A DNA stretch of 64,000 nt, from positions 32,001-96,000 of the IMG/VR virus record IMGVR_UViG_3300037042_004723; one strand, given 5' to 3'. Positions within the stretch are counted from its first letter, which is position 1. Each line of letters opens with the position of its first letter. This document shows positions 9,206 through 32,808 of the stretch, in pieces. Origin of the DNA: a virus. A model generated the notes under the pieces. The model was not told where the DNA came from. It searched no databases and worked only from the letters and a program-made list of their open reading frames with translations. The position numbers and the translations under genes are program-made.

Positions 9206-9736
9206 CTAGCCCAGCAGCTGGGCCAGTGCAGCCTTCGCCCGGCTGGCCATGGCCACGGTCACGCCCACCTCACGGGCCGCATCGGTCCACGACTGGCTAC
9301 GCATGAACGCTTCAACAACGGCACGGTGAACCGGCTTGAGCGACGCAACGGCTGCGCGAACCCCCGCAATCTCCTGGCCCCTCACCATGTCGAGGTGCGG
9401 ATCACTGTCGGCGGGCAACGCCTCAGCCACGGGGATGCTGCGCCCGTCGTCGCTCACGACCTGGGGCATCTGAGACTCGAACCTGTGATGAGCCAAGCGC
9501 AGCCAGTTGTGTGCGCGGTACTTCGCAAAGCACGTGAAGTGTGACCGGGCCGAACCCTTGCCCGCATCGAAGGTACGCACGCCGTAGTCGAGCGCCTCGA
9601 CCATGACGCGGCTCATGCACTCGTCGAGGTCGCTCTCGGTGGAGTAGCGCGACCGGCGCAGCACGTTAGCCACGGTGGCGCGCATGGCGGGAAGGACGGT
9701 TAGAATCTCGGAGTGAATCGCTTTGGTGTTCAGCAT
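9206..9736 (-). CDS. ECF-type sigma-70 family factor (paralog 1)
   Basis: Region 2-like FDAGKGSARSHF..FAKYRAHNWLR and a C-terminal HTH; sigma70-like promoter. Confidence 0.75.
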   Translation of the reverse strand: MLNTKAIHSEILTVLPAMRATVANVLRRSRYSTESDLDECMSRVMVEALDYGVRTFDAGKGSARSHFTCFAKYRAHNWLRLAHHRFESQMPQVVSDDGRSIPVAEALPADSDPHLDMVRGQEIAGVRAAVASLKPVHRAVVEAFMRSQSWTDAAREVGVTVAMASRAKAALAQLLG

Positions 9737-9857
9737 GGTAAGAATCATATACTAAGGGATTGTCAATGTCAACACCTAAGATGGCCATACTGAAGATCTT
9801 TTTGAGAAAACTCAATCAAAGCAATGCAAGAGCGGGCAACCCTTGCGTTACTTCTGA

Positions 9858-10640
9858 TCAGCCGCCCGGCGTGGCCGAAGCTTCGAGCTTCGATCCGCAG
9901 CACGGGCAGAGCCCCGAGCGATCGGACTGGACGTGCAGCTTGCCCGCCTCCCACGACTCGCCCTTGTCCTGCTCCGTGCGATCGTACGCCTCTAATTGCG
10001 TCTTAGCGCCGAAGCCAGCCGCGCCATCACGATACCAATTGTTCGCGTTGTCGGTGTCCCAGCATGCGCCGCAAGCGTCACGATCGCCCGTGCAGTAGAT
10101 GGAAGCCCGAGCATTATCGAAAATGCTCATTTCCTCGCCGCTCACCTCGAACACGCGGGGCCGCGTGTAGCCGCCCCGGACATCCGCTCCGCCGTGGATT
10201 GAGAGCACCACGTATGCCTGGAAATCCAGAACGAAATAAGTGAACTGAATAACCTGGGAAAGGAGATCTTCCCCGTTGTACGTGTTGACGGTCACGGGAT
10301 TCTCATCATTGTAGATGCCACGGGGCCGGTTCTCGCCCTTGCCGAGGTACTCAAGCCAGAGCCCGACGAGCGCGAAACACGACTCGTCCTTGTGCTCCGC
10401 CCTCGCACAGAAGCGGCGGAACTTCTGATCCATGGACTTGGACAGCGTGAGGCGGTCCGCGAGCCAGTGGTACACGTTGAGCGTGACTTCGATCCCGTAC
10501 TTGAAATCGAGGGTAGCCAGTGGTTCCGCATCGAACTTGCGACCCTGGTTACGCTGCCACGCGCGACCGTTCGTGCCGCCGCTGTCGAGGAAGTGGGTGC
10601 CCGTGTTCTCCGTCAGCATATTTGCGATGGTGTTGTTCAT
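9858..10640 (-). CDS. Hypothetical phage protein (ENTGTHFLDSGG / IHGGADVRGGYT motifs)
   Basis: 260-aa ORF; class I promoter. Confidence 0.8.
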   Translation of the reverse strand: MNNTIANMLTENTGTHFLDSGGTNGRAWQRNQGRKFDAEPLATLDFKYGIEVTLNVYHWLADRLTLSKSMDQKFRRFCARAEHKDESCFALVGLWLEYLGKGENRPRGIYNDENPVTVNTYNGEDLLSQVIQFTYFVLDFQAYVVLSIHGGADVRGGYTRPRVFEVSGEEMSIFDNARASIYCTGDRDACGACWDTDNANNWYRDGAAGFGAKTQLEAYDRTEQDKGESWEAGKLHVQSDRSGLCPCCGSKLEASATPGG

Positions 10641-10708
10641 GTCTCTACTACAACTGGACTAGCTGAGATTTTCGCGAAATTGCATGGGCCCTCAGTTGTA
10701 GTCTATGC

Positions 10709-10918
10709 ATGAGGAAACAAATATCAGTCCACACGGCAACACCTGGGGATCTCGTTCGTCTCGCGCGTGAGAATGGATACGAGATTCTCCCCGGCAGGGG
10801 AAAGGGATCACACATCGTCCTAACCAAAGCAGGTTCACCAAATGTCACAATCCCAGGCGGAAAGCATGTCGGCCGCAACGTGGTCCGCCGCATGATAAAG
10901 GTAATCATGGCAGCATGA
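10709..10918 (+). CDS. hicA: HicA-family mRNA interferase (toxin-like)
   Basis: 69 aa, basic, with the GKGSH motif followed by VTIP; class I promoter. Confidence 0.8.
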   Translation: MRKQISVHTATPGDLVRLARENGYEILPGRGKGSHIVLTKAGSPNVTIPGGKHVGRNVVRRMIKVIMAA

Positions 10919-10989
10919 AGCAAGGCAAGGGGGGCTCGGCATCCCCCGAGCCACACACTCGGAAAACTCTAAGAGTTTTCTCTCCTGCC

Positions 10990-11136
10990 TCACGGCACCT
11001 TCACCGAAGTGGCTGCCGCCTGGGCGAACGAGGTTGTTTCGCCCGGTCGGGTCATGTTCATCTGGGCCATGCGAGACTTCATCCAGCGCCAGAACTCCTT
11101 GGCGCACCATGGACACTGTGGGCTGCAATTCTTCAT
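10990..11136 (-). CDS. 48-aa hypothetical protein (MKNCSPQCPWC...), not in the ORF track
   Basis: ATG 6 nt from a class I box. Confidence 0.6.
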   Translation of the reverse strand: MKNCSPQCPWCAKEFWRWMKSRMAQMNMTRPGETTSFAQAAATSVKVP

Positions 11137-11206
11137 GCAAAGACTACAACTGAGCTAGCTCAGATTTTCAGGTGAAAAAACCAGCTAGCTGAATTGTAGT
11201 AAGGGC

Positions 11207-11575
11207 ATGACCAAGAATACACTGACCGTTATCGTCTGCCGCGTGGGCCAGTTGGCCGTGGTTGAGCAGATGGCCCCTGGGCTCAAGCCCATGCAGGACA
11301 TCGTGGGCGGGCACATCGAGTGCGTCGGCCTGGAAGGCACGCCCTTTGAGCACGGTATCGACCTGTGGTGCGATGAAGAGTTCCTCCTCAAGGACTACAA
11401 GCCAAACCGAACGATCGGCCCCCGGCTTGTCATCCACGGTGATTTCTTCATCGCCGCTCATGACGGGGAGGGCGAAACCCTTGGGCTCACCGATGCAGAG
11501 GTCGCCCGCCTCTTGCCCAAGGTGAAGTCGTGGCCGGTCTTCCTTGGTGCCGGGCTCACGGTTCAGGAGGTCTAA
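11207..11575 (+). CDS. DUF3846-like protein
   Basis: MQDIVGGHIECV...LWCDEE...IHGDFFI pattern (recalled, not searched); class I promoter. Confidence 0.6.
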   Translation: MTKNTLTVIVCRVGQLAVVEQMAPGLKPMQDIVGGHIECVGLEGTPFEHGIDLWCDEEFLLKDYKPNRTIGPRLVIHGDFFIAAHDGEGETLGLTDAEVARLLPKVKSWPVFLGAGLTVQEV

Positions 11576-11647
11576 CCGGTCGGGCTACGGCCTTGGCCCG
11601 GTAAAACTCTAGACGCCCGGAGGGCGCAAGCGCCGACGCCAGCCGGC

Positions 11648-11941
11648 CTAGCCGAGCACCGCGAACTCGTGGCGACCGCCGCCCAGCTTGCTCCCGCAGC
11701 ACCCGCACGAGCGCCACGAGAACTCATCACAGCCCTTGCCCGCCTCGCTGTCGAAGTTCGGCACGAGATTAGGGCCGAGCGACGCCAGCCCGGCGTTCAC
11801 CTCAGCGATGCGCGCGTCACGCTTGGCCTCAGCCTCAGCGCCCCGCCCGTTCATCTGGTAGTCGAAGATGGAGTAGTCGCCGTTGACGGCGACCGTGGTG
11901 CAGTCGTCGCAGAGTAGGATTCCGTCCCTGATGATTTCCAT
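11648..11941 (-). CDS. Hypothetical protein with Cys pairs
   Basis: Class I promoter. Confidence 0.75.
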   Translation of the reverse strand: MEIIRDGILLCDDCTTVAVNGDYSIFDYQMNGRGAEAEAKRDARIAEVNAGLASLGPNLVPNFDSEAGKGCDEFSWRSCGCCGSKLGGGRHEFAVLG

Positions 11942-12011
11942 GTAGCAACTACAACTGAGCTAGCTCAGGTTTTCAGGTGAAAATACCGGCGCTCTCAGTT
12001 GTAGTAGCTAC

Positions 12012-12221
12012 ATGAAGAACAACATCACCGAGTACAGCGACGAGGAACTGAGCCTCACCGTCATGAACGACTACCAGCTCTACAAGATGCGCCGCCTACC
12101 GCTGCGCCACCTGCGCGCGACGCTGGAGGAGATTTTCATCTTCACCACCGATCAGTGGGTCGATCTGGTCGAGACCATCGAGGCCGACCTGGCCGAGGGC
12201 GACGAGGCGACGAGCAACTAA
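12012..12221 (+). CDS. Hypothetical protein
   Basis: Class I promoter. Confidence 0.75.
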   Translation: MKNNITEYSDEELSLTVMNDYQLYKMRRLPLRHLRATLEEIFIFTTDQWVDLVETIEADLAEGDEATSN

Positions 12222-12311
12222 GGCTCGGGGCTACGGCCCACTGGAAGAAAACTCTAAGAGTTTTCTGAACCACCTCACAGGCTGAGGCGGTTGCCTGTCA
12301 GATTCCGACGG

Positions 12312-12512
12312 CTAGTGCGTCTTCTTCCCGTAGCTGATGCGGAACCACACCCCGCCGTGCATCGCGGCGTCACTCTTGCCCACGAAGCATTTGAAGTCGG
12401 CGTGCTTCAGGTCGGCGGGCATGTTGCGTACGCCAAGCCTCATCGCCCCTGCGCGGGTCATGGGCTTGTCGAACGTGTGTAGACCGCATTTCACGAACAG
12501 CTTTTCGTCCAT
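12312..12512 (-). CDS. Hypothetical protein
   Basis: Class I promoter. Confidence 0.75.
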   Translation of the reverse strand: MDEKLFVKCGLHTFDKPMTRAGAMRLGVRNMPADLKHADFKCFVGKSDAAMHGGVWFRISYGKKTH

Positions 12513-12653
12513 ATCCCTACTACAATTCAGCCCTTAGAAAGTTTCGTGCGATGGAGCGAAAATTCAGTGTCAGCCAGTTGTAGTAAGACCACGAGAGCGA
12601 AATCAACCGGCCCCGATTCCCGGACGCCCCCCGATTCGCAAAGGATGATTCAG

Positions 12654-12995
12654 ATGAGCACCGCGACCAAGACCGTCCACGCCACCCTTCCCGTGTTCGT
12701 TGCCAAGCAGGAGGGCACCGTCGAGGTGACCCTCGATGAGGCGCTCGCCAACATCAAGGCGCTGCGCGCCCAGATGGCCCCGCTGGAGAAGGCCGAGAAG
12801 CAGCTTATCGAGCTGACCAAGGCCATGATGAAGGCCAAGGGCGTGGAGACGTACACCGCCCCCAGCGGTGACCGCGCGCTCTGGTCGGAGAGCCAGCGCA
12901 GCGAGTTCGACAAGGAGCTTGCCAAGGAGTTGCTCAAGGAGGATTGGGCGCGGGTCCACTCCTTCAAGACCGTCAAGAGCTTCACGGTCAAGTAG
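12654..12995 (+). CDS. Hypothetical coiled-coil protein
   Basis: Class I promoter, about 70-nt leader, AAGGA RBS. Confidence 0.75.
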   Translation: MSTATKTVHATLPVFVAKQEGTVEVTLDEALANIKALRAQMAPLEKAEKQLIELTKAMMKAKGVETYTAPSGDRALWSESQRSEFDKELAKELLKEDWARVHSFKTVKSFTVK

Positions 12996-13202
12996 GGTTC
13001 GTCCCCCGGGAGATAAAACCGGGCTCTGTGACCGCCAGCGCAGCACAACGCTGGACTACTGGCGGCGTCGGTTCAGCGACGTAAACATCTGTGGGAGGCT
13101 GCACACGCCCACGGCGCTCGCTCCCTGGCGGTCAGGGGGCACTTTTCTTTTCGGCTCAAGAAAACTCTAAGAGTTTTCCGGTTGAGGGCCGAAGCCCAGC
13201 GG

Positions 13203-13664
13203 CTAGCCCCACGAGATGTGGCGGTTGCCAGCCTTCTCGCAGATGCGGAGCATTTGCTCCGTACGCATCCGCAGGTAGCCAGGCATGCGGTCGCCCACGA
13301 TCACGCGCGGGTTCCCCGCAACGCCCATGGCAGCCGCACGGTCCTCGCCCGAGAGGGCGGGGTCGTGGTTGCGCGATTCGTCCCACAGGCGACGACGGCA
13401 ACGTGCGGCCAGTTCGGGCGCAGGAATATCCCCACCGTAATCGGCGCGGATGCTAATCCACTCCATGAATTCCAGCGCGTTGCCGTTGCCCATGTTGACT
13501 TCGGTGTCTGTGCAGTCGGAGCACGAGAACATTTCGGGCGTCTTCTGATCATTTGCCCACGCGGCATCGCACGCATCGCACCAGCGTTGCGAGCAATCGC
13601 AACGGTAGGCCCTGACCATCTGGCCAGCCGCGTTCACTTCCGTGATGTAGAACGTGATGCTCAT
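13203..13664 (-). CDS. Hypothetical Cys-rich protein
   Basis: Class I promoter; start at MSITF. Confidence 0.75.
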   Translation of the reverse strand: MSITFYITEVNAAGQMVRAYRCDCSQRWCDACDAAWANDQKTPEMFSCSDCTDTEVNMGNGNALEFMEWISIRADYGGDIPAPELAARCRRRLWDESRNHDPALSGEDRAAAMGVAGNPRVIVGDRMPGYLRMRTEQMLRICEKAGNRHISWG

Positions 13665-14179
13665 GGTTCTACTACAACTGAGGCAGCCTGGATTTTCATG
13701 GATTCGACGGCAAGGTCTTCGCTCTGATACACGTCCTTCCCATCGATCATGATGATGCGCGTGCGGATGGGCACCCACACGCCGTCACGGAGAGCCCTTG
13801 CCTCGCTCCACGTGGTCCGGTCGGCGAGCACGTAGCCCCTGCCAACCTTCTGAACCCACCCGATGATCGTCCCTGGGAACCTGTCTGTGTCGTACCAGAT
13901 CGGCGCGGTGACGTTGGCGTAGACGGTATCGCCCTCGATCCCGCCCTTGTCCTTGAAGTCACCCACGATGACGTAGGGGACCGTCGCGCCCTTGCCCATC
14001 ACGTTGTGCGCGTTGCGCTCGGTGTTGGCCTCGGTCAGCTTGTAGCCGTTGTAGCCGTAATCGCCCTTCCACATCGACGAGTGGCGGTAGGCGTACGAGT
14101 AGAGGTGAGCCGAGACCTTCGCCCCGTTCACGGCCAGCTGGACCGTCCTGCTGCGTAGCGAGTAGATGTAGATTCCCAT
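13661..14179 (-). CDS. Hypothetical protein
   Basis: Class I promoter. Confidence 0.75.
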   Translation of the reverse strand: MGIYIYSLRSRTVQLAVNGAKVSAHLYSYAYRHSSMWKGDYGYNGYKLTEANTERNAHNVMGKGATVPYVIVGDFKDKGGIEGDTVYANVTAPIWYDTDRFPGTIIGWVQKVGRGYVLADRTTWSEARALRDGVWVPIRTRIIMIDGKDVYQSEDLAVESMKIQAASVVVEP

Positions 14180-14483
14180 GACCTAACTACAACTGGGCTC
14201 CCTGGTATTTTCATGAAAAAACCAGCCCGCCTAGTTGTAGTAAGACCACAGGAACAAACAAGCCAACCGGCCAAAAAATAAACACCCCAAACCACAGGAA
14301 TCAATCAATGCTCATATAAGTGACGGTCAATCCCCTCTTGCTCTACCGTAAGCGTGGGGGTCCGAGAATATCTAAGGTAGCCGAGGGGGCTGATCTCCCC
14401 TCGGAGGAATCGCGTCGAGAGTTTTCCGAACGACACTGCATCGATTGCCTGAAAATCCCAGGTGGCCCAGTTGTAGTAGAACC

Positions 14484-14705
14484 ATGAGCAAGTTCAGCAT
14501 CAACGACACGGTCCGGGCGCTACACGACATCATCGACGGCGACGACGTGGTGTGCGCCCGCAAGGGCGACGAGGGCATCATCATCGACATCATCGAGGAC
14601 GAGCCGGACTGCCCGGCGGGCGCGGCCTTCGATGTGCTCTGGCCGCACATGATTACCATCACGAGCGCAAGCGAGATGGAACCGCTGGGCACGCTGCTCA
14701 ACTGA
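14484..14705 (+). CDS. Hypothetical protein
   Basis: Class I promoter; start at MSKFS. Confidence 0.7.
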   Translation: MSKFSINDTVRALHDIIDGDDVVCARKGDEGIIIDIIEDEPDCPAGAAFDVLWPHMITITSASEMEPLGTLLN

Positions 14706-14812
14706 GCGGCTGGCCTTCGGGCTCGCAGGCGTTGGAAAACTCCTATGGTTATTCGGCCTAGAGTTTTCCGCCCTGGGCGGCCGGGGTCGGGCCCGGCCGC
14801 CTCCTGTGGGGG

Positions 14813-15061
14813 CTAGGCCGCCACCTCCACGAACCCGTGGGAGACGAGCAGCGCCTCGAACTGGGCCAGCAGCTTGTCGGGCTTGCCCGAGAGCCCGAAC
14901 TCCTTACGGAGGATCGTGCTGCACTTGGGGGCCTTGGCGGTGAGCCGCATCCCTGGGTACTTGATCTCGAACTTGAGCCCGCTGAGGATCATCCGGAGTC
15001 GGATGCCGCCCATGGCGTAGGTCTTGTGATGCTCGATCTGCTCGGTCGCCTTGGTGTTCAT
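14813..15061 (-). CDS. Hypothetical protein
   Basis: Class I promoter. Confidence 0.75.
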   Translation of the reverse strand: MNTKATEQIEHHKTYAMGGIRLRMILSGLKFEIKYPGMRLTAKAPKCSTILRKEFGLSGKPDKLLAQFEALLVSHGFVEVAA

Positions 15062-15141
15062 GTACCTACTACAACTGAGCTAGCTGGTATTTTCACAGCA
15101 CATCAAATGAAAATCCGGGGCACCCCAGTTGTAGTAGGTAC

Positions 15142-15345
15142 ATGAAGAAGCTGACCACCAAGAAGCTGGACGCGCACATCTCCTCGGTCTACTACCGCGT
15201 GGCCGATGGCAAGGCTATCAACATCATGGACATCGGCAAGGTGTTCAAGGCCGCGCGTGATGCCTATCAGGCCATGCCGGATCTCGCCGTCGTCGAAGCG
15301 GCCATCATCGGCGCGGTCGCCAAGTACTGCAGGGCGGTGAACTAA
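15142..15345 (+). CDS. Hypothetical protein
   Basis: Class I promoter; first gene of a four-gene operon. Confidence 0.75.
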   Translation: MKKLTTKKLDAHISSVYYRVADGKAINIMDIGKVFKAARDAYQAMPDLAVVEAAIIGAVAKYCRAVN

Positions 15346-15581
15346 TGGACACCACCAAGAAGCAAACCGTCACCTGCATCGTCCGCGACAATCACCGTCA
15401 TGGCTACCCGGATCCCCTGATCTATGTGGTCGACGTGTCCGATCCACAGGACGAGGTCGAGGTACTCAAGGCTGTCACCGAGTCTCGCCGTGCGGACCTC
15501 GGTGGCGACGACAAGCTCGATCTAACCATCCTGTTGGTCTTTTCCGGCACCCTCAACACAATTTCAGATTGGCGCGAGTGA
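15345..15581 (+). CDS. Hypothetical protein
   Basis: TAATG coupling. Confidence 0.7.
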   Translation: MDTTKKQTVTCIVRDNHRHGYPDPLIYVVDVSDPQDEVEVLKAVTESRRADLGGDDKLDLTILLVFSGTLNTISDWRE

Positions 15582-15585
15582 ACTA

Positions 15586-15783
15586 ATGCCCCATTTCACA
15601 TTCACCGTCACCCGCGAGACCACCGAGAGCGTGACCGTCACCGTCGAGGCTGACTCCATCAAGGAGGCACATCGCAAAGCGCTGGCCACCCAGTACGGGA
15701 TTCGAGGGTGGGCATATGACGAAGGGAATCACCCTCGCGAGGCATACATCCCCGACGAGGACGATTACAAGGAGGAGGTCTAG
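15586..15783 (+). CDS. Hypothetical protein
   Basis: Operon spacing. Confidence 0.7.
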   Translation: MPHFTFTVTRETTESVTVTVEADSIKEAHRKALATQYGIRGWAYDEGNHPREAYIPDEDDYKEEV

Positions 15784-15785
15784 CC

Positions 15786-15995
15786 ATGCGCGAATGGCGC
15801 GGATACTGTGAACGCTGCGGCGATAAGTCGTTCAGCTACACGATGTCGCGGTTCAACACTCAGTTGATCTGCGGCCCCTGCAAAAAGAAAGAACGCGAGC
15901 ACCCTGATTACCAGCGCGCGGCGGATGCCGAGCTGGCGTCGTTGAAGCGTGGTGAGCGCAACTTTCCGGGCATCGGGAAGCCGAAGGACCTCTAA
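15786..15995 (+). CDS. Small Zn-finger-like protein (CxxC...CxxC)
   Basis: GGAGG RBS; Cys pairs. Confidence 0.7.
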   Translation: MREWRGYCERCGDKSFSYTMSRFNTQLICGPCKKKEREHPDYQRAADAELASLKRGERNFPGIGKPKDL

Positions 15996-16077
15996 CCAAG
16001 AAGGAGGAGGGGGCGCGCAAGCGCTTGCGTCGATAGAAAACTCTTAGAGTTTTCCGTTAAGGGCCTTAGCCCGAGGG

Positions 16078-16299
16078 CTACCAGCGCCCCTCGCCATACC
16101 CGTAATCGGGTTCGATGGGCTCGTCGACGTCGGCCTGCGAGTACCCCGTGAGGATCTCCGGGCGGTAGCGACTGAGCTTCGCCGCCCGACACTCGTCGCA
16201 CACCCGGCAGAGCGGGATGCCCTGCGCGTCGTGCTCCCACCACGAGCCGTCGGACTTAGTGTGCGGGTGCCGCTTCAGATGCTCGCTCGGTTGCTTCAT
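16078..16299 (-). CDS. Hypothetical protein
   Basis: Class I promoter; start at MKQPS. Confidence 0.75.
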   Translation of the reverse strand: MKQPSEHLKRHPHTKSDGSWWEHDAQGIPLCRVCDECRAAKLSRYRPEILTGYSQADVDEPIEPDYGYGEGRW

Positions 16300-16368
16300 G
16301 TAGCTACTACAATTCAGCTCGCCCCAATTTTCACTGAAAATACCAGCTAGCCCAGTTGTAGTAGGTAC

Positions 16369-16566
16369 ATGAAGACGATGACCATCAAGGTTCCCCAGTC
16401 CACCCGCCGCTCGGGCGCTGCCATCGCGGCGATGCACCGCAATCCCGTCATCATGCGCCACCGGCTACAGCCTCGGGGCGGGGCGCGCAACGTCCAGGCG
16501 TCCTACTTCGACGAGATCATCGTCGAGGATGAGTCGCACTGGTTCGACGAGGACCGGGACGGCTGA
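16369..16566 (+). CDS. Hypothetical protein
   Basis: Class I promoter. Confidence 0.7.
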   Translation: MKTMTIKVPQSTRRSGAAIAAMHRNPVIMRHRLQPRGGARNVQASYFDEIIVEDESHWFDEDRDG

Positions 16567-16574
16567 TCAGTCCT

Positions 16575-16640
16575 GGCACTGACCGGGACGGTTCCCGGCG
16601 GATGATAGCCTGAAAGGCGGTTCGACCCCGCCCAGTGCCA
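16575..16640 (+). ncRNA. tRNA-like element lacking a canonical anticodon arm
   Basis: Acceptor GGCACTG/CAGTGCC+A, D-like stem CCGGGA/TCCCGG, T-arm GGCGG-TTCGACC-CCGCC. Confidence 0.65.
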
Positions 16641-16721
16641 CCGCAGCGGAAAACTCTAAGAGTTTTCTAAGCCGCGCTGGGCTTGGTAGCCCGTCACCCT
16701 TGGTAGGGCTTGCGCTGTCGC

Positions 16722-17027
16722 TCACGCCGGGCGGGAGACGTGGCCCTCCGTTCCGTCGTCGAAGGTGATCGGATCGTGCTCCCCGCAGAGCTTGGCGACC
16801 GTGAGCCCATCGGGCAGGTTGGGCACGCTGAACAGGAGCGAGCCACGGTCGAACACCCAGGGCTCGAAGGTGATCGGCGTGTCGAGCGGAATGTCGATGG
16901 CAACGCTCATCGCATCGAAGGTCAGCACGTCACCCTTGACGGTGAGTCTGCGAACCAGCCTGCCCGAGTAGAGGCAGCGAATTTCCGCACCATGGTGCCC
17001 GTTCATCAAGTCAGCGAAAGTCTTCAT
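16722..17027 (-). CDS. Hypothetical protein
   Basis: Class I promoter. Confidence 0.75.
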   Translation of the reverse strand: MKTFADLMNGHHGAEIRCLYSGRLVRRLTVKGDVLTFDAMSVAIDIPLDTPITFEPWVFDRGSLLFSVPNLPDGLTVAKLCGEHDPITFDDGTEGHVSRPA

Positions 17028-17097
17028 GGTTCTACTACAACTGGGCCAACCGAAACTTTCACCTGAAAACCTGAGCTAGCTCAGTTGTAGTTAGACC

Positions 17098-17679: not shown

Positions 17680-17796
17680 GCGGACCGGCGGGGTTCGTTG
17701 CCTCGCAGGCTTGGAAAACTCTGGCCCATAGGGAGTTTTCTTGGCCGCGCCCGCCGGGCGGCCAAGGCTACGGCTTGTCCTTTACCTCGGCCACGG

Positions 17797-24419: not shown

Positions 24420-24641
24420 CTAAGCGCCGGTCGGGATGTACTTCGACCCCTTGATGAACGGGCCCCAGACGGTGAGACCACCCGAGGTGATCTCGATGGC
24501 TTCGTCCTCGCGGAGCGTGCGGTACATGTCGATCGCCAGGTTCCTGACGTCATCGAACGCGCGGCCCTGCTGCGCAGGGTGCGAGGAGATGGTCTCGAAG
24601 CGGGCGGCGGGCTTGGCAACTGCGATGTGGTAGTTCAGCAT
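24420..24641 (-). CDS. Hypothetical protein
   Basis: Class II promoter. Confidence 0.7.
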   Translation of the reverse strand: MLNYHIAVAKPAARFETISSHPAQQGRAFDDVRNLAIDMYRTLREDEAIEITSGGLTVWGPFIKGSKYIPTGA

Positions 24642-24843
24642 TTAATGACCTTAGCAGGTGATGGTTGCATTGTCAATGCATTGAATGCGTGACAATGATG
24701 AATTGCTTCGAGTGGCGGCGTATCCTGCCCCTACTACAATTGTGCTCGCCTGAATTTTCATCATATCAATGCAGGGGAAAACTCTAAGGTCTGACAGCAG
24801 GTAGAGTTTTCTTAACGCCTGACCGGGCGAACCCGGCGGGGCC

Positions 24844-25149
24844 CTAGAACATCCACTGAACCGGCGGGGCGTTCTCGCTCCACGCGGCGACCAGCATGTC
24901 TCGGTCGTCGTCGAACACAACAGGCTCGAACGACACCACGCACTCGCTCTCGGCCTGCGTCAGCTTGCGGTACTGACGGAGCGCGGCCTTACGCTCTTGC
25001 TTGGCCCAGTCCAGCCACCCGCAGTCGGCGCAGCAGGGGTCCCACACCTGGCACTGCCAGTCGATGAACGCTGCCAGGGCTTCCTCGATAGCCAGGTCGT
25101 TCTCGTGGTCTGCCAGCCCTTCGGCTAGCGCGGCTTGTCTGTTCAGCAT
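24844..25149 (-). CDS. Hypothetical protein
   Basis: AGGAGG RBS; MLNRQ start. Confidence 0.7.
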   Translation of the reverse strand: MLNRQAALAEGLADHENDLAIEEALAAFIDWQCQVWDPCCADCGWLDWAKQERKAALRQYRKLTQAESECVVSFEPVVFDDDRDMLVAAWSENAPPVQWMF

Positions 25150-25199
25150 CTGTCCTCCTAGTGGTGATGACGTGGCGGGGCGCGCGAATCTGACGGGGG

Positions 25200-25337
25200 C
25201 TAGCCCATGACTCGCTGGAACGGGTCAGCGATGGCGATGGCTTGCGCCATGGTCATCTGCCCGATGGCTCGGCTACCATTGCGACCGAGGAGGGTCAGGG
25301 CGCGGCAGGAAACGACCTTCACGATGATTTGCTTCAC
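25200..25337 (-). CDS. Small hypothetical protein
   Basis: GTG 6 nt from a class I box. Confidence 0.55.
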   Translation of the reverse strand: MKQIIVKVVSCRALTLLGRNGSRAIGQMTMAQAIAIADPFQRVMG

Positions 25338-25465
25338 GCTATCACTACAACTGTGCTCGGTCGGATTTTCAGGTGATTTTATCGAAGACCAGGCCGGGCT
25401 AGACCAGGCCGGAAAACTCTTAGAGTTTTCTTGATGCAGCATCGGCGCGGTGCGCCGGGCCCCGC

Positions 25466-25852
25466 CTAGATGAGCGACAGGAGGGCCGCTCCGTCCGGCG
25501 TGGCCGGGGCCACGTTCCAGTGGGGGCCGAACGAGATCCCGACCACATCGGGCGTCTCATCCTGGCGCGCGTCGCCCATCACCGTGCCGATGATGTAGCT
25601 GCCATCGCGGGCCACCAGGGCCACGTTGCAGCCCAGGGAAGCGGCCACGGTGGCCTGCTTCGCGAAGATTAGCCGATCGGGGCCGATGAGGGCCTCGATC
25701 TCGGCCAGTCGCTCGGCGATGAACTCGGCCTCATCGTCGCCGCCACCGCAGCACCAGTCGCAACCCACCAGGGTGTCGCTCATGACCGCGCGACGCGCGC
25801 GGAGGGTGATGCGCTCGGAGAGGAGGAGGGCGACCGTGGAGTGGTTCAGCAT
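25466..25852 (-). CDS. Hypothetical protein
   Basis: Class II unit. Confidence 0.75.
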   Translation of the reverse strand: MLNHSTVALLLSERITLRARRAVMSDTLVGCDWCCGGGDDEAEFIAERLAEIEALIGPDRLIFAKQATVAASLGCNVALVARDGSYIIGTVMGDARQDETPDVVGISFGPHWNVAPATPDGAALLSLI

Positions 25853-26030
25853 TCATCAGTTGTAGCATGGTTACCTTGACAATGCAACAACTATCTACTA
25901 ACAATCGACTGTCAAGATCTGCGGATCCTGTTAGGAAAACTCGGGTTGGCGCAACGCAGTGCGTGGCCATATGAGAGTTTTCCAAACCCACGGGCGAGAT
26001 CGGGCGGGGTGCCCGGTCGCCCCGGTCGGG

Positions 26031-26588
26031 CTACTCGTCGCCGTCCTCGTCGCCGTCCTCGCCGGACACAGCGGCCTTGAGCGCGGCGAGGAGCGCGGCC
26101 CGCTTGCGCGTGGCCTTGACGGCGTTCCAGCCGAACGCCTTGCCAGCGTCCCCGATGGACTCGCCCCGGATGAGGGCCCGGACGAAGGCCCGGTCGGTCT
26201 CGTCCTGGATCTCGGAGATCGCCAGGGCCAGATCTTGAGCCTCCATCGAACGGGCCACCTCGACCCGCCCATCGGCACCGGGCAGGGACTCGACGATCAT
26301 CTCGCCGCCATTCTCGCCCTCATCGTCGCTCGCCGTCACCACGTCATGCGAGCGGTAGCCCTCGGCCTTCATGTGGTTGCGGGCCGTGTTCCCGGCGATC
26401 TTGCAGCAGAAGTTGCTGAAGTTGCCACGGGCCGCGTCGAAGCTCTCGATCTGCTCCATGACGCGCACGCACGAATCGTTCAGGATGTCGTTCAGGTCGG
26501 CATTCTTGCCAACGGCGCGGACGATCGCGCCCGTCATGGATCCGATGGTGGTGGTGGTGATGATGGTCGGGACCGTGTGATTCAGCAT
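26031..26588 (-). CDS. ECF-type sigma-70 family factor (paralog 4)
   Basis: NDILNDSCVRVMEQIESFDAARGNFSNFCCKIAGNTARNHMK; C-terminal HTH. Confidence 0.85.
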   Translation of the reverse strand: MLNHTVPTIITTTTIGSMTGAIVRAVGKNADLNDILNDSCVRVMEQIESFDAARGNFSNFCCKIAGNTARNHMKAEGYRSHDVVTASDDEGENGGEMIVESLPGADGRVEVARSMEAQDLALAISEIQDETDRAFVRALIRGESIGDAGKAFGWNAVKATRKRAALLAALKAAVSGEDGDEDGDE

Positions 26589-26777
26589 TCATCAGTTGTA
26601 GCCTATCAAGAGCCGATAGTCAAGGTATCTTTTGCCATGCAATGCAGATAGTTTGCACTGTCCTTAACAATGCATTAACCTGACCGGAAAACTCTAAACC
26701 ACCATTGAGGGCACATGGCCTTTAGAGTTTTCTCCATGGCGGAAAAATCTGACGCGGTGCGCCAGCCCGCCGGGCTG

Positions 26778-27089
26778 CTACTCGGTGTAGCAGCCGGGGC
26801 AGGTGGTCACCCCGAGCGCGTCACAGTGGCCGCCCTCGTCGAGACGGTGGCCGACCGTGAGCCCGGCCCGGGTGGCGTCTTCGAGGGTAGCGCCCACGTT
26901 GACAGCGTTCGCGGCTTCGATCTCAGCGTCGCAGACGTCGCACGTCTCGACGGCGAACATTCTGATCATGCCAGGGTAAACGCTGGCAGTCGCATTCGAG
27001 AAACCCCAGTTCTTCGCCAGCGAACGGAGTGCCATAACGGCGAGGGGGAGGTGGCGGGTGGAACCAAAGAACTTCGTGTGATTCAGCAT
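26778..27089 (-). CDS. Hypothetical protein
   Basis: Class II unit. Confidence 0.7.
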   Translation of the reverse strand: MLNHTKFFGSTRHLPLAVMALRSLAKNWGFSNATASVYPGMIRMFAVETCDVCDAEIEAANAVNVGATLEDATRAGLTVGHRLDEGGHCDALGVTTCPGCYTE

Positions 27090-27268
27090 TCATCAGTTGT
27101 AGCCTATCAAGAGCCGATAGTCAATGTATCTTTTGCCTTGCTATGCAGATAGTTGGCACGATCCTTGACAATGCACTGGTCAGACCGGAAAACTCTGTTT
27201 AACCATTAAGGCACATGGCCTTTAGAGTTTTCTCCCAGCACTGGCGGCCCCGGCGGCGGGCCGGGGGG

Positions 27269-27613
27269 CTAGCGGTCCAGCGGGTGGCAGGTGTTGATCA
27301 CCTGTCCCATGTAGTCCATTGCGGCCAGGAAGTCCCCAGCGGGGCGGATCAGCAAGGCGCACAGGTCGCCCGGCAGCATGGCCAGGGCATCCGCGCAGAA
27401 GGCGTCCCACACGTGACCCGGCTGGAAGATGAACGGGGCCAGGTCCGCCAGGTCGATCATCCCGTCCTCCCACTGGTCACGGCGCTCGGCGTCCGTGGTG
27501 GCCAGGAGGGTGCCGAAGGACGGCAGGGCGGCCACGGTGGCCTGGTAGGCGACCCATGCCTCCATGGTGGCAACGGTGGCGGGGGAGGTGGCGGGAGCGG
27601 TGTTCTTGAGCAT
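27269..27613 (-). CDS. Hypothetical protein
   Basis: Class II unit. Confidence 0.7.
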   Translation of the reverse strand: MLKNTAPATSPATVATMEAWVAYQATVAALPSFGTLLATTDAERRDQWEDGMIDLADLAPFIFQPGHVWDAFCADALAMLPGDLCALLIRPAGDFLAAMDYMGQVINTCHPLDR

Positions 27614-27791
27614 CCATCAGTTGTAGCCTATCAAGAGCCGATAGTCAAGGTATCTTTTGCCATGCAATACAGATAGTTGGCACACATCTTGACAATGCAT
27701 TGGTCAGACCGGAAAACTCTATTTAGTCATTAAGCATTAGCTTAAGTGGAGTTTTCCTGTCTGGAGTCGGCGCGGTGCGCCGGCCCGGATC

Positions 27792-28170
27792 TCAGAGCGA
27801 AGCGCCGGCCAGATAGGCGGCGATCACGAGCCGATCTGCCTGAGCGCGGAGGATGGCATCGGCCTGATCGTCCTCCTGCGCGAGCTGGCGATACCAGTTC
27901 TCCTCGCGTCGCCAGCTCGCCAGCTCGGCGAAGTAATCGAAATAACGCTCCTCGTCGCTCGTCATGTGGTACTCGTCCCACATGTCAGCGTCCATGATTG
28001 CGCACTCGGCGCAATCACAGCCCCGGAGCGGACAGGCCGTCCAGAACGGGGCCACGTCCAGATCCAGGCCGTTGTCGGCCAGAGTCATCGCCTTGCGTCG
28101 GGCAAGGTTCGCGAGGTGGAGCTTGTGCCCCTGGTAGCGGTGCATCGTGTGGCCGGTGGTGTTCGACATC
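27792..28170 (-). CDS. Hypothetical protein
   Basis: Class II unit; start at MSNTT. Confidence 0.7.
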
Positions 28171-28347
28171 TGAGAACCATCATGGACTATCATCGCCCGA
28201 TTGTCAAGGTATCTTTTGCCATGCAATGCAGATAGTTTGCGCGTACCTGACAATGCATTTACTTTAACCGGAAAACTCCATTAATGGCCTGGTAATGGAG
28301 TTTTCTTGACAGGCCTAGTCGGCGCCGGAGGGCGCCCGGCCCTGAGG

Positions 28348-28923
28348 CTAGATCTTGTCGGCCAGAGCGGCCGTGATCGAGCGGTAGCGGCGCGTCGTGG
28401 TCGCGGGTGACCAGCCCAAGAGGGCGCCGGCCTCGCACTGGCCCATGCCCCCGGCCATCGCATCCAGGAACGTCTGCGAGTCAGCGTCAAGCGCGAGCAT
28501 GGCATCGGCCAGAGCCTTGCGCTCGAAGTAGCGCACCATGTCAGCGGCGCCATCCACGCCCACGAGCGTATCGACGAGCGCGACCTCGGAGTCATCGTCG
28601 CCGAGGTTCGTCTCGGAGTCGTGGTTACGGTTCGCGTGAGCCTTGCGCCAGTTGCGCGCAGCGTTCGCAGCGATGCGGCACGCCCACGAGACGATCGACC
28701 CCTTCGACCAGTCGAACGACTCGGCGTGCTCCATCATGCTCACGAGCGCATCCTGCACAACGTCAGACGTTGCGCTCGTCTCGCCGATGGTACGCTCGAC
28801 GGTGCGCGCCATGGTCTTGAACAGGTCGGGGTTGCCGATCTGGCTCATGACGTCCAAGCGAGTCTCGCTCGACGCGCCCGTGGAAGTGAAACCGTTGTGA
28901 CCGATGTTCGTGTGATTCACCAT
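28348..28923 (-). CDS. ECF-type sigma-70 family factor (paralog 5)
   Basis: SDVVQDALVSMMEHAESFDWSKGSIVSWACRIAANAARNWRK is a typical ECF region 2; QCEAGALLGWSPATTTRR is region 4. Confidence 0.9.
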   Translation of the reverse strand: MVNHTNIGHNGFTSTGASSETRLDVMSQIGNPDLFKTMARTVERTIGETSATSDVVQDALVSMMEHAESFDWSKGSIVSWACRIAANAARNWRKAHANRNHDSETNLGDDDSEVALVDTLVGVDGAADMVRYFERKALADAMLALDADSQTFLDAMAGGMGQCEAGALLGWSPATTTRRYRSITAALADKI

Positions 28924-29169
28924 ACATAGCATGGCTATCTTTACAATGATACATCAATCGACTAACAAATCACTGTCAAGATCTGTGGATCCTGTTAGGA
29001 AAACTCTATGGTGCGAGGCCATATGGAGTTTTCCGCTTAAGCCAGTTGGCCCGGCGGGGCCGGTCGGGCTACTTCTTGAAGGTGGCCGTAGCCAGATCGA
29101 GCGTGATGCACTCGCCGGTCGCCGGATCTACGAAGTAGACCGGGGCCGTGGGGCGCTTGGCCCGCTTCA

Positions 29170-29481
29170 CTAGCGGCCCCTCCGGCCGCGCACGTAGTTG
29201 AGTTCCTCCATGGCGGCATCGGCTCCGACCCCGGCCGCGAACGCCGCGCCGAAAACCTCGGCATCCTCCTCGGCGTAGGACTCGGACGAGCGGACCGTGC
29301 GGCCCGTGGTCAGGCGACCCGAGCGGGCCAGGGGGCGGCCGTCCGGGGCCACCTCGGCGAGCTTGCGCAGGGTCTTGAGGGAGACGGCGTTACCCTCGGA
29401 GGGGGCGCACGTGGTGACCTTCCCGCCCTTCGCGAGGAAGGCGGCGAGGGCGGCGGCGGCGGACTCGGTCTTGTTCAGCAT
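29170..29481 (-). CDS. Hypothetical protein
   Basis: Class II unit. Confidence 0.75.
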   Translation of the reverse strand: MLNKTESAAAALAAFLAKGGKVTTCAPSEGNAVSLKTLRKLAEVAPDGRPLARSGRLTTGRTVRSSESYAEEDAEVFGAAFAAGVGADAAMEELNYVRGRRGR

Positions 29482-29657
29482 TCACCATACATAGCATGGC
29501 TATCTTGACAATGCAACAACTATCTAACAACAATCGACTGTCAAGATCTGTGGATCCTGTTAGTGATAAGCGGAAAACTCGCTTTAGCTTTTAAGCGGGG
29601 CTTAGGCGGAGTTTTCCCGATGCCCCGGTGGCGGGATCCGCCCCCCGACCCGGTCGC

Positions 29658-29930
29658 CTACCGGAAGGCGGCGGGGTGCGGGTAGGTCTGGCGGAACCCG
29701 TACTCGACCTCCCGGAGGTCATCCTCGGCGACCTCGAAGGCCGCAAAGGCCGCGTCCATGGCATCGGACGCCTCACCCTCGCCGTCCGTCCCGTTCGCCT
29801 TGCGCATGGCCTTGCAGGCCGCTTCGAGCGCACGGGCCGCGCCGTCCCGCAGGTCCAGGAAGCGGGCAACCGTGGCCGGGTCGGCCACGAACATCTCAAC
29901 CGCGCGCTGGGCATTCCGTTTGTTCAGCAT
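29658..29930 (-). CDS. Hypothetical coiled-coil protein
   Basis: TTGACT-N17-TAAGGT promoter. Confidence 0.75.
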   Translation of the reverse strand: MLNKRNAQRAVEMFVADPATVARFLDLRDGAARALEAACKAMRKANGTDGEGEASDAMDAAFAAFEVAEDDLREVEYGFRQTYPHPAAFR

Positions 29931-30118
29931 GCCTAACCTTAACCCAGGACTTAAGCTAAGTCAATCACCGAATGCGACGCAATGACGATTTATTTAGGTG
30001 GCCTTTAACAAGAAAACTCCCGCGCAAGCGCTTGCGTTGGAGTTTTCCTGATGTGCTAGCGGCCCCGGCGGGGGCGGGGCGCTTTTCCGGGCTAGCGGCC
30101 CCGGCGGGGGCGAGGGAG

Positions 30119-30532
30119 CTAGCGATCCCAGCGACCGCCGATCCGGGGGCCGTCGTCGCCGGACTGCCACGGGAGCGCGCGGGGCGGGAGCGATGCCGCT
30201 CGGACCCGCTCGGCCTCAATCTCGCGCCACTGGCGCGCCTCGCGCGCTTCGTCCGTCTCGCCCGTGTCCCACCACTCCTTCTCCGGCGGGGCAGCCGCTA
30301 GGGCTGCTGCCTTAGCAGCTTCGCGCGCGTCCCGCTCGGCGGAGAGCCGCACGTCGATCGCGTCCCGCTCGGCGCGGATCGCGGCGAGCTTGCGCTCCTT
30401 GATCGTCATGGGAGGCGCCTCCACAGTGAAGCTCGCCGGAGCCTCCGGCTCCAACGCGAGCGGGGCCACGGGCCCCACGGGGGCCGGGGAGAGGGAAGCG
30501 AGCGCTGCAAAGGACTTGAAGGTCTTGCTCAT
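30119..30532 (-). CDS. Hypothetical Ala/Arg-rich protein
   Basis: Class II promoter. Confidence 0.75.
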   Translation of the reverse strand: MSKTFKSFAALASLSPAPVGPVAPLALEPEAPASFTVEAPPMTIKERKLAAIRAERDAIDVRLSAERDAREAAKAAALAAAPPEKEWWDTGETDEAREARQWREIEAERVRAASLPPRALPWQSGDDGPRIGGRWDR

Positions 30533-30728
30533 GTCAATGAATGTAGCCTATCAAGAGCCCATTGTCAAGGTATCCTTTGCCATGCAATGCAGATAGTTTG
30601 CGCGTACCTGACAATGCATTAACCTGACCGGAAAACTCTATTTAACCATTAAGCATTAGCTTAAAAGGAGTTTTCCTGTCTGGGGTCGGCGTGGCCGACT
30701 AGCGCTAGTCGGCCACGCTGCCGGGGCG

Positions 30729-31055
30729 CTACACCCGGTAGAAGCCCCGGCACCCAACCACGGCCCCACCCTCGTCGCGCACGAGCGCGCCGGGGGTCAG
30801 CAGGTCCGCAGTGGACCGGCCCGCCTCGCGCGCGGCGCTCGCCGCGAGCGCGCTCACGACGAGCCAAACCCCGCTCTGGGGCGCGGGGAGACCGACCGGC
30901 TCCCCGCGCGTGACGCGCGACGTCGGGACGCCACAGACGTCCTCCGTGGTCTCGGTTGTCTCGGTGGCACGGGCGACCCCCTCCGAGGGGAGGGTGCGGG
31001 TGGAGCCGTCCGCGAGGACGACCGCGACGATGTGCGGGGTGAGGTTCTTGAGCAT
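30729..31055 (-). CDS. Hypothetical phage protein (NLTPH...LVRD..G.V.GC.G motif)
   Basis: Class II promoter places the start at MLKNLTPH. Confidence 0.75.
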   Translation of the reverse strand: MLKNLTPHIVAVVLADGSTRTLPSEGVARATETTETTEDVCGVPTSRVTRGEPVGLPAPQSGVWLVVSALAASAAREAGRSTADLLTPGALVRDEGGAVVGCRGFYRV

Positions 31056-31221
31056 GATAAGACCATAGCAGTTCATCACTGCATTGTCAATGTATATTTT
31101 GCCATGCAATGGGGAATATTTAACCGACCTTGACAACTGCCTTAGTGCAACGAGAAAACTCCCTTTAACAGGCCATTAATAGAGTTTTCCGCTTGGCCGG
31201 TTAGCCCGGCGGGCCGGTCGG

Positions 31222-31632
31222 CTACTCGTAGCGGACGGTGAGGCTCGCCGCGTAGGGAGCGGGCGAGAATACGAGGGTGAGCGCGGTAACGTCGCACGTG
31301 GGGACGTCGCGGGGGATCTTGGCGAGCAGTAGCTCGGCAACGTGGCGTGCGAGTCTCTCGCACGAGAGCGCGGTGCCACGCTCGGCGATCCGGTCCATGT
31401 ACAGGCCCACCATGGCCTGGTCGAACAGGAAGCCCCGGTCGTCCAGGCGCGGCGCGCACGTCACGGTCAGGTCCCACCGGACCGGGATCGCCTTGCGGCC
31501 CCCGTCGACGTTCACAAGGGCCCCAGCGGGGCCACAGTGGTTCGGGCCCGAGACAACGAAATTCGAGATCCCCGCGCGCTGCAGCGTGAAGCTGGCGAGC
31601 TTGAGCGCGGGGCGGGCGGTGTGATTCAGCAT
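31222..31632 (-). CDS. Possible T-fold (QueD-like) protein
   Basis: LDDRGFLFD and SCERLA resemble QueD motifs, but the metal-binding His residues are absent. Confidence 0.45.
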   Translation of the reverse strand: MLNHTARPALKLASFTLQRAGISNFVVSGPNHCGPAGALVNVDGGRKAIPVRWDLTVTCAPRLDDRGFLFDQAMVGLYMDRIAERGTALSCERLARHVAELLLAKIPRDVPTCDVTALTLVFSPAPYAASLTVRYE

Positions 31633-31821
31633 TCATCAGTGATAGCACAGCTACCTTGACAATGATACAACAATCGAACAACAATCGACTGTCAAGGTAA
31701 GGCAATCCTGTCAGGAAAACTCTATGGTGCAAGGCCCTTAATGGAGTTTTCCGGTTAGGCCAGTGGCCCGGCGGGGCCGGGGGCTAGCGGTTGGCCGGTC
31801 GGGCCGCTTACCCGGCGGGGG

Positions 31822-32082
31822 CTAGCGGTCCCAGCGACCCGCGATTCTGGGGCCGTGACCCTCGTCGGGAGCGGTCGCGCGGGCCCGTGCGGCGCGTACC
31901 TTTTCCTCTTCGACGGCGAGCCGCGCCGCCGTCTCCTCCGCCGACTCGGCGGCCCTTGCCGCCTCCCAGGCAGCGCGCCCCGCGCGATACATCTCCCTGA
32001 TCTCCCGCGCTTCTGCGCGGAGGCGCTCGTTGCGCGAGAGGGTGGCGGTCGCGGGGGGGGTGGTCGCGGTGTTCTTGAGCAT
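31822..32082 (-). CDS. Hypothetical Ala/Arg-rich protein
   Basis: Class II unit. Confidence 0.75.
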   Translation of the reverse strand: MLKNTATTPPATATLSRNERLRAEAREIREMYRAGRAAWEAARAAESAEETAARLAVEEEKVRAARARATAPDEGHGPRIAGRWDR

Positions 32083-32277
32083 TCATCAGTTGTAGCCTAT
32101 CGAGAGCCCATTGTCAAGGTATCCTTTTCCATGCAATGCAGATAGTTTGCACGGTCTTTGACAATGCATTTGACAGACCGGAAAACTCTGTTTAGTCATT
32201 AAGCATTAGCTTAAGTGGAGTTTTCCTGACCACCTTTGGCAAAAAAGGCGCCCCGGTGAGGGGGCGCACTCCTTTCT

Positions 32278-32808
32278 TCAGGCTGCCATCGCAGCGGTGA
32301 TCGTGGCGATCGATCGCTGTTTGGCACGAGTGACGCCAGCGTTTGACGTACGGCAGGCGATGGCTACGACCTTCGCCGGGGTACCGGCGAGCAGCATCTC
32401 AAGCACGCGACGGTCGGACGCTTCGATAGACGCCATGGCAAGGGCCAGGCGCGCTTCATCGGCGCCGGACTTGCTCGGCATAGGGGCCGCAACGCTCTCG
32501 ACGTTGCGAGCGTAGGACGTGAACCGTGGGGCTTCGAAACCGGTCTTGATCACGTTGATCGTGCAACGGGTCACGACCTTCCGGATGAAGCGGGCAAGGC
32601 CCGTCATGCCCGAGCGGTTAAAGTCCCGCAGGGCCACGATGAGGCGGATCGTAGCGGTCGAGATCAGATCATCGATCATGCCCCACACCCGGGTGTCGCT
32701 GTCCTCGATCACTCCCATCACGGCAAGCTCGATCAGGTTCGCGTGCTCCACGACAACGGTGTTGATCTCAGAGGCGGTTAGCTTGGGTTGGTTCGTCATC
32801 TGTTCCAA
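32278..32808 (-). CDS. Divergent ECF-type sigma-70 family factor (paralog 6)
   Basis: DDLISTATIRL..LRDFNRSG..LARF..VVTRCTIN..K; C-terminal HTH PAKVVAIACRTSNAGVTRAKQR. Confidence 0.65.
   Translation of the reverse strand: MEQMTNQPKLTASEINTVVVEHANLIELAVMGVIEDSDTRVWGMIDDLISTATIRLIVALRDFNRSGMTGLARFIRKVVTRCTINVIKTGFEAPRFTSYARNVESVAAPMPSKSGADEARLALAMASIEASDRRVLEMLLAGTPAKVVAIACRTSNAGVTRAKQRSIATITAAMAA

Follow-up and report, generated by a model that had tools for sequence, protein, structure and literature searches.

Six ECF-type sigma factor genes in four orthogroups, and a candidate set of promoters for their products, in a large sediment phage

The IMG/VR virus record IMGVR_UViG_3300037042_004723 is the 197-kb genome of an uncultured sediment phage. 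The stretch analysed here, called the window, comprises 64,000 nucleotides of that record, and positions below refer to the window unless the genome is named. The window contains six genes for sigma factors of the extracytoplasmic function (ECF) type, which are designated by their lowest coordinate (9206, 20638, 21803, 26031, 28348 and 32278; Table 1), and many copies of a promoter, termed class I, that is a candidate target for the proteins that they encode. The phage sequence has a GC content of 57%, and PHROG families for tail sheath, portal, tape measure and terminase-like proteins, a UvsX-like recombinase and helicases are matched in the genome, which is therefore that of a large myovirus. 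Near-identical DNA is found in the sediment metagenomes of three studies, and the record probably derives from one of these. Among 50,697 phage records searched by megablast and tblastn, the sigma genes have no significant match (best tblastn E 0.03), and the sole megablast match is a stretch of 89 bases; no cultured phage in that set is similar in DNA or in the sigma proteins.

The original prediction placed six ECF-type open reading frames (ORFs) of 167-190 residues at these positions, and all six are present there on the minus strand. The size range holds roughly, and now reads 167-194 residues for the longest ORFs and 167-191 from the likely starts. Since orthologs begin with the residues MLN, the true starts are likely to be 9736, 28923 or 28932, and 32799. 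The GC content is far higher at third codon positions (0.79-0.91) than at second positions (0.45-0.49), showing that the six ORFs are real coding genes. No further sigma copy was found in a search of the 197-kb genome, and the total is thus six.

Profile searches with hidden Markov models (HMMs) connect all six products to the sigma-70 family. The Pfam family Sigma70_r2 (PF04542) is matched over its cut-off by 26031 and 28348 and under it by 21803. The NCBIfam family TIGR02937 (sigma70-ECF) matches five of the six, with E values from 1e-10 to 1e-5 and alignments across both domains, which in four of the genes extend to profile positions 161-163 of 165. The sixth, 9206, has no TIGR02937 match and instead matches PRK13919 (sigma E) at 7e-6. 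These sub-cut-off matches complete the coverage of the six: region 2 of 9206, 20638 and 32278 is spanned by TIGR02937 or PRK13919 alignments, and additionally by hhalign or a leave-one-out HMM. Four of the proteins also match the PHROG sigma families 1740 and 351. The motif EAGAL.GWSPAT.TRR, which had been reported in three copies, is indeed common to 20638, 21803 and 28348. The protein encoded by 26031 has an acidic tail and a divergent region 4 helix (GWNAVKATRKR).

The structural comparisons agree with these assignments. A PDB profile search with the profile of the 28348 orthologs returned only ECF sigmas (sigmaE, SigW, AlgU and CnrH). The AlphaFold model of 28348 (pLDDT 75) consists of two helical domains with a disordered linker between them, and its best Foldseek matches are SigK, SigE, SigH, SigL, sigmaE, AlgU, CnrH and SigW. 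For the 32278 model (pLDDT 82), the PDB matches listed are sigma factors nearly throughout, and the ESM Atlas neighbours of this protein are for the most part sigma-70-family clusters. In both models, a low-confidence linker of 20-28 residues joins the two helical domains, of which the C-terminal one aligns with ECF sigma chains. Given lengths of 167-191 residues and this architecture, none of the six proteins has a region 1.1 or a region 3. The six genes thus belong to the sigma-70 family, with what appears to be the two-domain (sigma-2/sigma-4) architecture of ECF group 4.

Table 1. Coordinates of the features discussed (window positions, except in the first line)
Feature	Coordinates	Strand	Remarks
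Window	32001..96000 of the record		197,279-bp IMG/VR virus record; CheckV rating: complete
Sigma gene, orthogroup C	9206..9736	-	176 aa from MLN start; longest ORF to 9748
Promoter of 9206	9744..9772	-	TTGACA-N17-TATGAT, 7 nt 5' of ATG at 9736; layout kept in L007 ortholog
Hairpin closing 20638 cassette	20582..20600	-	GAAAACTC-TTA-GAGTTTTC
Sigma gene, orthogroup B copy 1	20638..21159	-	173 aa; TIGR02937 8.7e-9; PHROG 1740 2.4e-9
Class II promoter of 20638	21166..21194	-	TTGACT-N17-TACAAC-N6-ATG; conserved upstream module of ~60 nt
Hairpin closing 21803 cassette	21747..21766	-	conserved
Sigma gene, orthogroup B copy 2	21803..22306	-	167 aa; Sigma70_r2 20.3 bits; TIGR02937 1.3e-7
Promoter of 21803	22314..22342	-	TTGCAT-N17-TAAGGT-N7-ATG; adjoins TCGATTGTTG element
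Sigma gene, orthogroup B older copy	26031..26588	-	185 aa; Sigma70_r2 34.6 bits
Class II promoter of 26031	26595..26623	-	-35, -10 and N6 as for 20638; one spacer base differs
Sigma gene, orthogroup A	28348..28932	-	191-194 aa; Sigma70_r2 39.4 bits; TIGR02937 41.1 bits
Promoter region of 28348	28940..28979	-	TTGACA, then TTGTTA-N17-TGTAAA-N7-ATG(28932); TCGATTGATG element; exact promoter uncertain
Sigma gene, orthogroup D	32278..32799	-	173 aa; longest ORF from TTG at 32808; TIGR02937 5.5e-6
Promoter of 32278	32813..32840	-	TTGACA-N16-TGTAGG; ATG 13 nt downstream
Class I promoters	488..60888		TGAAAA-N16-TGTAGT-N6-ATG; 50 in window, 73 in genome

The genes had originally been described as paralogous. 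They do form one family, but their kinship is uneven. Four orthogroups can be distinguished in a tree of 115 family members: A, which contains 28348 within a clade of about 40 members; B, with the recent pair 20638/21803 and the older copy 26031; C, with 9206 (clade support 98); and D, with 32278. Pairwise identity is 79% between 20638 and 21803, 54% between 21803 and 26031, 39% between 21803 and 28348, and 24-27% between 9206 and the others. The most canonical and most widespread of the six is 28348 and the most divergent is 32278, for which BLASTP against the other five finds no match and the leave-one-out HMM gives only 8.5 bits, compared with 46.7 bits for 9206. Profile-profile comparison is the only link between orthogroup D and the other groups (hhalign of the 32278 group versus the 28348 group: 98.4% probability, E 8e-15, 135 columns across both domains), and together with the model and the ESM Atlas neighbours it places 32278 in the family. 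The set is better described as four orthogroups of ancient origin, with group B grown to three copies. At E <= 1e-10, an exhaustive profile search returned 85 cluster representatives, a number that rises to 7,823 at E <= 1e-3. The sigmas form a small and distinct branch within the huge ECF family.

All four orthogroups extend beyond this phage. Orthologs share 49-89% identity with 9206 and 81-91% with 32278, 26031 has an ortholog of its own (P0038, 61%), and 28348, its own record apart, has 23 homologs with identities of 46-79%. One related contig (L007) carries A, B and C within 11.8 kb, two others (L003 and L004) carry A and B, and orthologs are also found on contigs of 275 kb and 62.9 kb. 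Scans of IMG/VR with single proteins and with three orthogroup alignments yielded only two related contigs, G001 and G002, which in the sequence available carry A and C and no others. Since related contigs carry several orthogroups, the possession of several sigmas is an ancestral and conserved trait of this phage group. The count of six arises from the addition of D and from the threefold B, which in the tree is particular to this phage.

Pairwise ratios of nonsynonymous to synonymous substitution rates (dN/dS) range from 0.16 to 0.62 among the copies compared, with 0.28 for the recent pair 20638/21803, and these copies are thus under purifying selection. The best-kept segments in orthogroup A are W.CRIAAN.ARNW.KA and the recognition helix GWSPATTTRR, which are invariant or nearly so at 46-79% overall identity. 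In ECF sigmas, these segments are the parts that read DNA. Such conservation bears on the suggestion, made in the original prediction, that some of the six act as decoys by sequestering host core polymerase or anti-sigma factors; in that role they would not initiate transcription. The degenerate region 2 motifs of orthogroups C and D and the weak HMM scores for region 4 would fit such a role. Against it, orthogroup C is under purifying selection over its whole length (dN/dS 0.25-0.39), D, for which the orthologs available to such a selection test are 81-91% identical, aligns with A in both domains in the profile comparison and has a model with the two-domain sigma fold, and none of ten neighbouring proteins tested matched an anti-sigma family. 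A decoy role thus finds no support here and is very unlikely.

Every sigma gene forms a single-gene cassette, with a sigma-70-like promoter (general form TTGACA/T-N16-17-TAnnnn) on its 5' side and a hairpin of one type, GGAAAACTC...GAGTTTTCC, on its 3' side; the claim that each sits in its own unit behind such a promoter is thereby borne out for all six. A scan of the sigma cluster found 12 sigma-70-like sites against 3.2 expected. The layout is the same for orthologs on other contigs, which have TTGACA-N17-TATAAC, and the common form for the sigma genes here and in relatives is TTGACA-N17-TATAAC/TACAAC/TATGAT, 6-7 nucleotides 5' of the ATG. That distance, measured from the end of the -10, applies to five of the six genes, so their mRNAs should be leaderless. 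The promoter of 32278 is a hybrid between a sigma-70-like -35 and a class I-like -10, and its mRNA is not leaderless, as the ATG lies further downstream. The hairpin, as GGAAAACTC-loop-GAGTTTTCC, ends every gene cassette between 9 and 33 kb of the window, often behind a GC-rich hairpin, and its arm resembles the class I -35.

The upstream contexts are of three kinds: a plain promoter (9206), the class II cassette, and near-palindromic TCGATTGTTG elements (21803 and 28348). The class II module of about 60 nucleotides also precedes seven small, unrelated genes whose first codons, M-L-N/K, are the same. Its sequence, ATGCATTGTCA...ATCTGCATTGCATGGCAAAAGATACC, occurs on the minus strand at 21198, 23354, 26627, 27652, 28211, 30572, 31699, 32121 and 32844. 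Most class II cassettes begin with the codons ATG CTS AAS (M-L-N/K) ahead of unrelated proteins, so that the conserved block reaches into the leaderless coding sequence. The class II -10 region, CTACAACTG (21166-21180, 26595-26609 and others), reads exactly as the reverse complement of CAGTTGTAG, the extended -10 of class I, which may reflect a shared origin, dual recognition or chance. Near-palindromic TTGACAGTCGATTGTTG elements lie at 22352, 28961, 29537 and 31677-31688 on the minus strand and at 25876, 29505 and 31656 on the plus strand. They precede two of the sigma genes and two other early genes, and their form suggests the operators of a dimeric regulator. A four-cysteine zinc-ribbon protein of 63 residues (23124-23315, minus strand), which is encoded behind a class II promoter and has weak matches to TFIIB/RPB9-type ribbons, could be a transcription factor.

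The class I promoters are the candidate targets of the phage sigmas. The window contains 50 matches versus 0.5 expected, and the 73 sites in the genome compare with 0-1 for a reversed control. The relatives G001 and G002 are as rich in class I, with 51 and 54 sites respectively, again against 0-1 in the reversed control. In the present phage, most of the sites lie between genome positions 20 and 60 kb, and many form divergent pairs ahead of small genes. According to the position matrix, the ATG follows at a fixed distance in 57 of the 73 sites; GAAA is present in the -35 of 71-73 of them, and the -10 invariably carries a G at the position for which primary sigmas require A(-11). Promoters of ECF sigmas have AAC in the -35 and a group-specific -10, such as the tGAAAC...CGTA of SigW, and are close to consensus (PMC5758882). 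With an A-rich -35, a G at the A(-11) position and near-consensus sites like those of SigW, class I appears ECF-like and unfit for a primary sigma, which makes it a plausible phage-sigma target. To this extent, the original proposal that the six factors fire these promoters is plausible. If the reader is a phage sigma, it is most likely orthogroup A (28348) or, failing that, C (9206), because G001 and G002, in the sequence available, carry A and C only.

A few class I sites have a sub-variant -35, with GAAAGTTTC or GAAACTTTC in place of TGAAAAT (2164, 4557, 12526, 17041 and 60869 (-)), and GAAAGTCC variants of the -35 occur in the relative L001. These sub-variants may represent a second specificity. 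One metatranscriptome library yielded a single 254-nucleotide contig, at 24601-24854 and without differences, and no contig over the sigma genes, and is uninformative on their expression. This contig spans the class I promoter at 24740 (minus strand), which has no ATG after it, and could be a non-coding RNA or DNA carry-over. A phage RNA polymerase was also considered as the reader of class I. The 11 largest ORFs were tested and none is a polymerase; they encode helicases, terminase-like, portal, sheath and tape measure proteins, a UvsX-like protein and a Kelch protein, or are of unknown function. The T7-like RNA polymerase family PF00940 gave no match, although its control was uninformative.

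The reading that we favour, with a probability of roughly 0.6, is that the phage sigmas steer the host RNA polymerase to the ~73 class I promoters, after having been made early and in parallel by the host holoenzyme. On infection, the host primary-sigma holoenzyme would transcribe the six sigma genes from their near-consensus sigma-70-type promoters, most of the mRNAs beginning at or near the ATG. The phage sigmas would then compete for the host core RNA polymerase, and at least one of them would direct it to the class I promoters, with transcription starting at the A of the ATG, thereby driving many small genes of the early region. The remaining copies would probably have overlapping or finely shifted promoter selectivity, differ in timing through their upstream regions, or control late promoters. 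We infer the binding of the host core polymerase, the identity of the class I reader and the timing of expression from the arrangement of genes and promoters.

Several points weigh against this scheme. All NCBIfam scores are under the curated cut-offs: the TIGR02937 threshold of 42.9 bits is approached most closely by 28348, and the other four matches score 25-35 bits. The sigma-4 helix-turn-helix (HTH) families PF08281 and PF04545 are likewise sub-threshold, at 15 bits for 20638 and 14.2 bits in a six-frame search, and orthogroups C and D stray strongly from the canonical region 2 motifs. Moreover, class I could instead be read by an alternative sigma of the host. Finally, the searches found just one phage-specific promoter class that is abundant, as against four orthogroups, which leaves most of the paralogs without an identified target and lends no support to the notion of a separate target for each.

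An alternative to parallel synthesis is a serial cascade, as in SPO1, in which one sigma turns on the next and each orthogroup has its own temporal class of promoters. It would be in keeping with the differences among the four orthogroups in region 2 and region 4 sequence, with the three types of upstream control regions, and with the 32278 promoter, which pairs a sigma-70-like -35 with the class I-like -10 TGTAGG. The late genes would also need some other factor, as no gp55-type late sigma was found: the gp55 families phrog_234 and phrog_12791 have no match in the genome at E <= 0.1 (T4 positive control 2.5e-70), and a search for the T4 late motif TATAAATA found it absent. However, neither here nor in the relatives does a class I promoter lie ahead of any sigma gene. 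Nor was a second or third repeated promoter class found by a dyad search after masking of class I or by k-mer searches, and a search for the TGAAAA -35 paired with other -10 hexamers found none; apart from class II modules and hairpins, the dyad, -35-pairing and late-gene upstream k-mer searches returned no more than a weak GATCTAT signal. The multi-sigma cascade of the original prediction is therefore unsupported in its serial form, and we regard it as unlikely. Because no sigma gene lies behind class I, the host holoenzyme would instead switch on all six in parallel, and the visible hierarchy would consist of one step, leading from the host sigma to the phage sigmas, of which one or more would fire class I.

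It is also conceivable that the copies differ little in function, that several sigmas read class I, and that they were multiplied in order to out-compete the host sigma or to suit the polymerases of different hosts or host states. Overlapping promoter recognition is known among the ECF paralogs of B. subtilis (PMC5758882). In the phage, the region 4 recognition helix is almost identical in 20638, 21803 and 28348, orthogroup B is tripled in this phage only, and a single abundant target class was found, all of which would be expected from a question of dosage. Pure redundancy seldom persists over long divergence, however, and A, B and C have stayed distinct through just such a divergence and are unlike in the part of region 2 by which the -10 is read. 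Simple redundancy is accordingly doubtful as an explanation.

A further possibility is that the phage sigmas act on host genes by mimicking host ECF regulons, while a host alternative sigma reads class I. In Bacillus phages, there are known sigma homologs that activate programmes of the host (PMC9429907). The six genes show no sign of auto-regulation, as each is preceded by a sigma-70-like promoter and not by class I, the -10 being class I-like at 32278 only, and no target has been assigned to them experimentally. On the other hand, a pattern scan of 185,579 species genomes in GTDB found no close bacterial relative of orthogroup A, and hence no clue to the host; the nearest relatives of the orthogroup A family begin with the MLN of the phage cassette. 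It would also be an odd coincidence that every relative with these sigmas has ECF-like class I promoters in 50-70 copies. We consider this possibility improbable, and the steering of host polymerase to class I by at least one phage sigma remains the preferred reading.

A bolder version of the steering scheme is that a four-lineage ECF network has replaced the T4-style MotA/AsiA and gp55/gp33 systems and runs the whole infection on largely leaderless mRNAs. The lineages would then read class I, its sub-variants (the GAAAGTTTC -35) and the late promoters, in a clade of sediment and groundwater myoviruses. We put this forward tentatively, as something rather less than probable.

The closest known counterparts of these proteins are bacterial ECF sigmas such as E. 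coli sigmaE, B. subtilis SigW, P. aeruginosa AlgU, M. tuberculosis SigH, SigK and SigL, and CnrH, which are their best matches in both sequence and fold. They are alike in a size of ~170-190 residues, the sigma-2/sigma-4 architecture with, in the phage proteins, a probable C-terminal HTH, and the motif D..Q/N...FD..KG...W..IA.N.ARN. The SigW promoter (TGAAAC/CGTA) resembles the candidate class I target in its A-rich -35 and GTA-containing -10. Unlike the bacterial factors, the phage sigmas are encoded by single phage-borne genes without a co-transcribed anti-sigma or an auto-regulatory promoter, and with scores below all curated subfamily cut-offs they fall into no named ECF group among those tested.

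Phage-encoded sigma factors are a classic route to the takeover of host transcription, and known phages have between one and three of them. Bacillus phages SPO1 (gp28, gp33/gp34) and SP10 (g183/g200/g120) also carry several sigma-70-family proteins per genome, which are made from host-type promoters and redirect the host core polymerase to phage promoters (PMC9429907); the sigmas described here would work in a similar way. Those phages differ in having at most three sigmas that act serially, in contrast to the six in four orthogroups found here, all of them behind host-type promoters. T4, with gp55, gp33 and the gp45 clamp, is likewise a myovirus dependent on the host RNA polymerase, but here the searches above found neither the gp55 family nor the late motif, and the six proteins are apparently full two-domain ECF-like sigmas. 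In a survey published in 2022 that covered 4,350 reference phage genomes, no genome had more than three sigma homologs (PMC9429907), half the number present here. Reviews of jumbo phages mention sigma factors and report no such expansions (PMC7824862, PMC13282480), and neither a phage with more than three sigma genes nor an earlier report of six was found in the literature. A mechanism already known is thus expanded here in a real and unusual way, and would operate in the manner proposed above.

Other features of the genome lie outside this system. A Kelch beta-propeller repeat protein of 1076 residues is encoded at 46176-49406 on the minus strand (Pfam 9e-52). The ORFs for the portal, terminase-like and UvsX-like proteins, at genome positions 142551-147689, 135669-140060, 117354-119471 and 961-3804 (L018, L017, L015 and L013, respectively), are oversized. 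Families of HNH endonucleases are also matched by two of them, the portal and UvsX-like ORFs, an indication of inteins or of fused homing endonucleases.

Six ECF-type sigmas of four lineages and ~73 near-identical promoters make up a compact set of possibly orthogonal sigma/promoter pairs, with a possible use in synthetic circuits. The phage also offers a test case for how one host polymerase may be shared out among several phage sigmas, and for how ECF sigmas function without anti-sigma partners.

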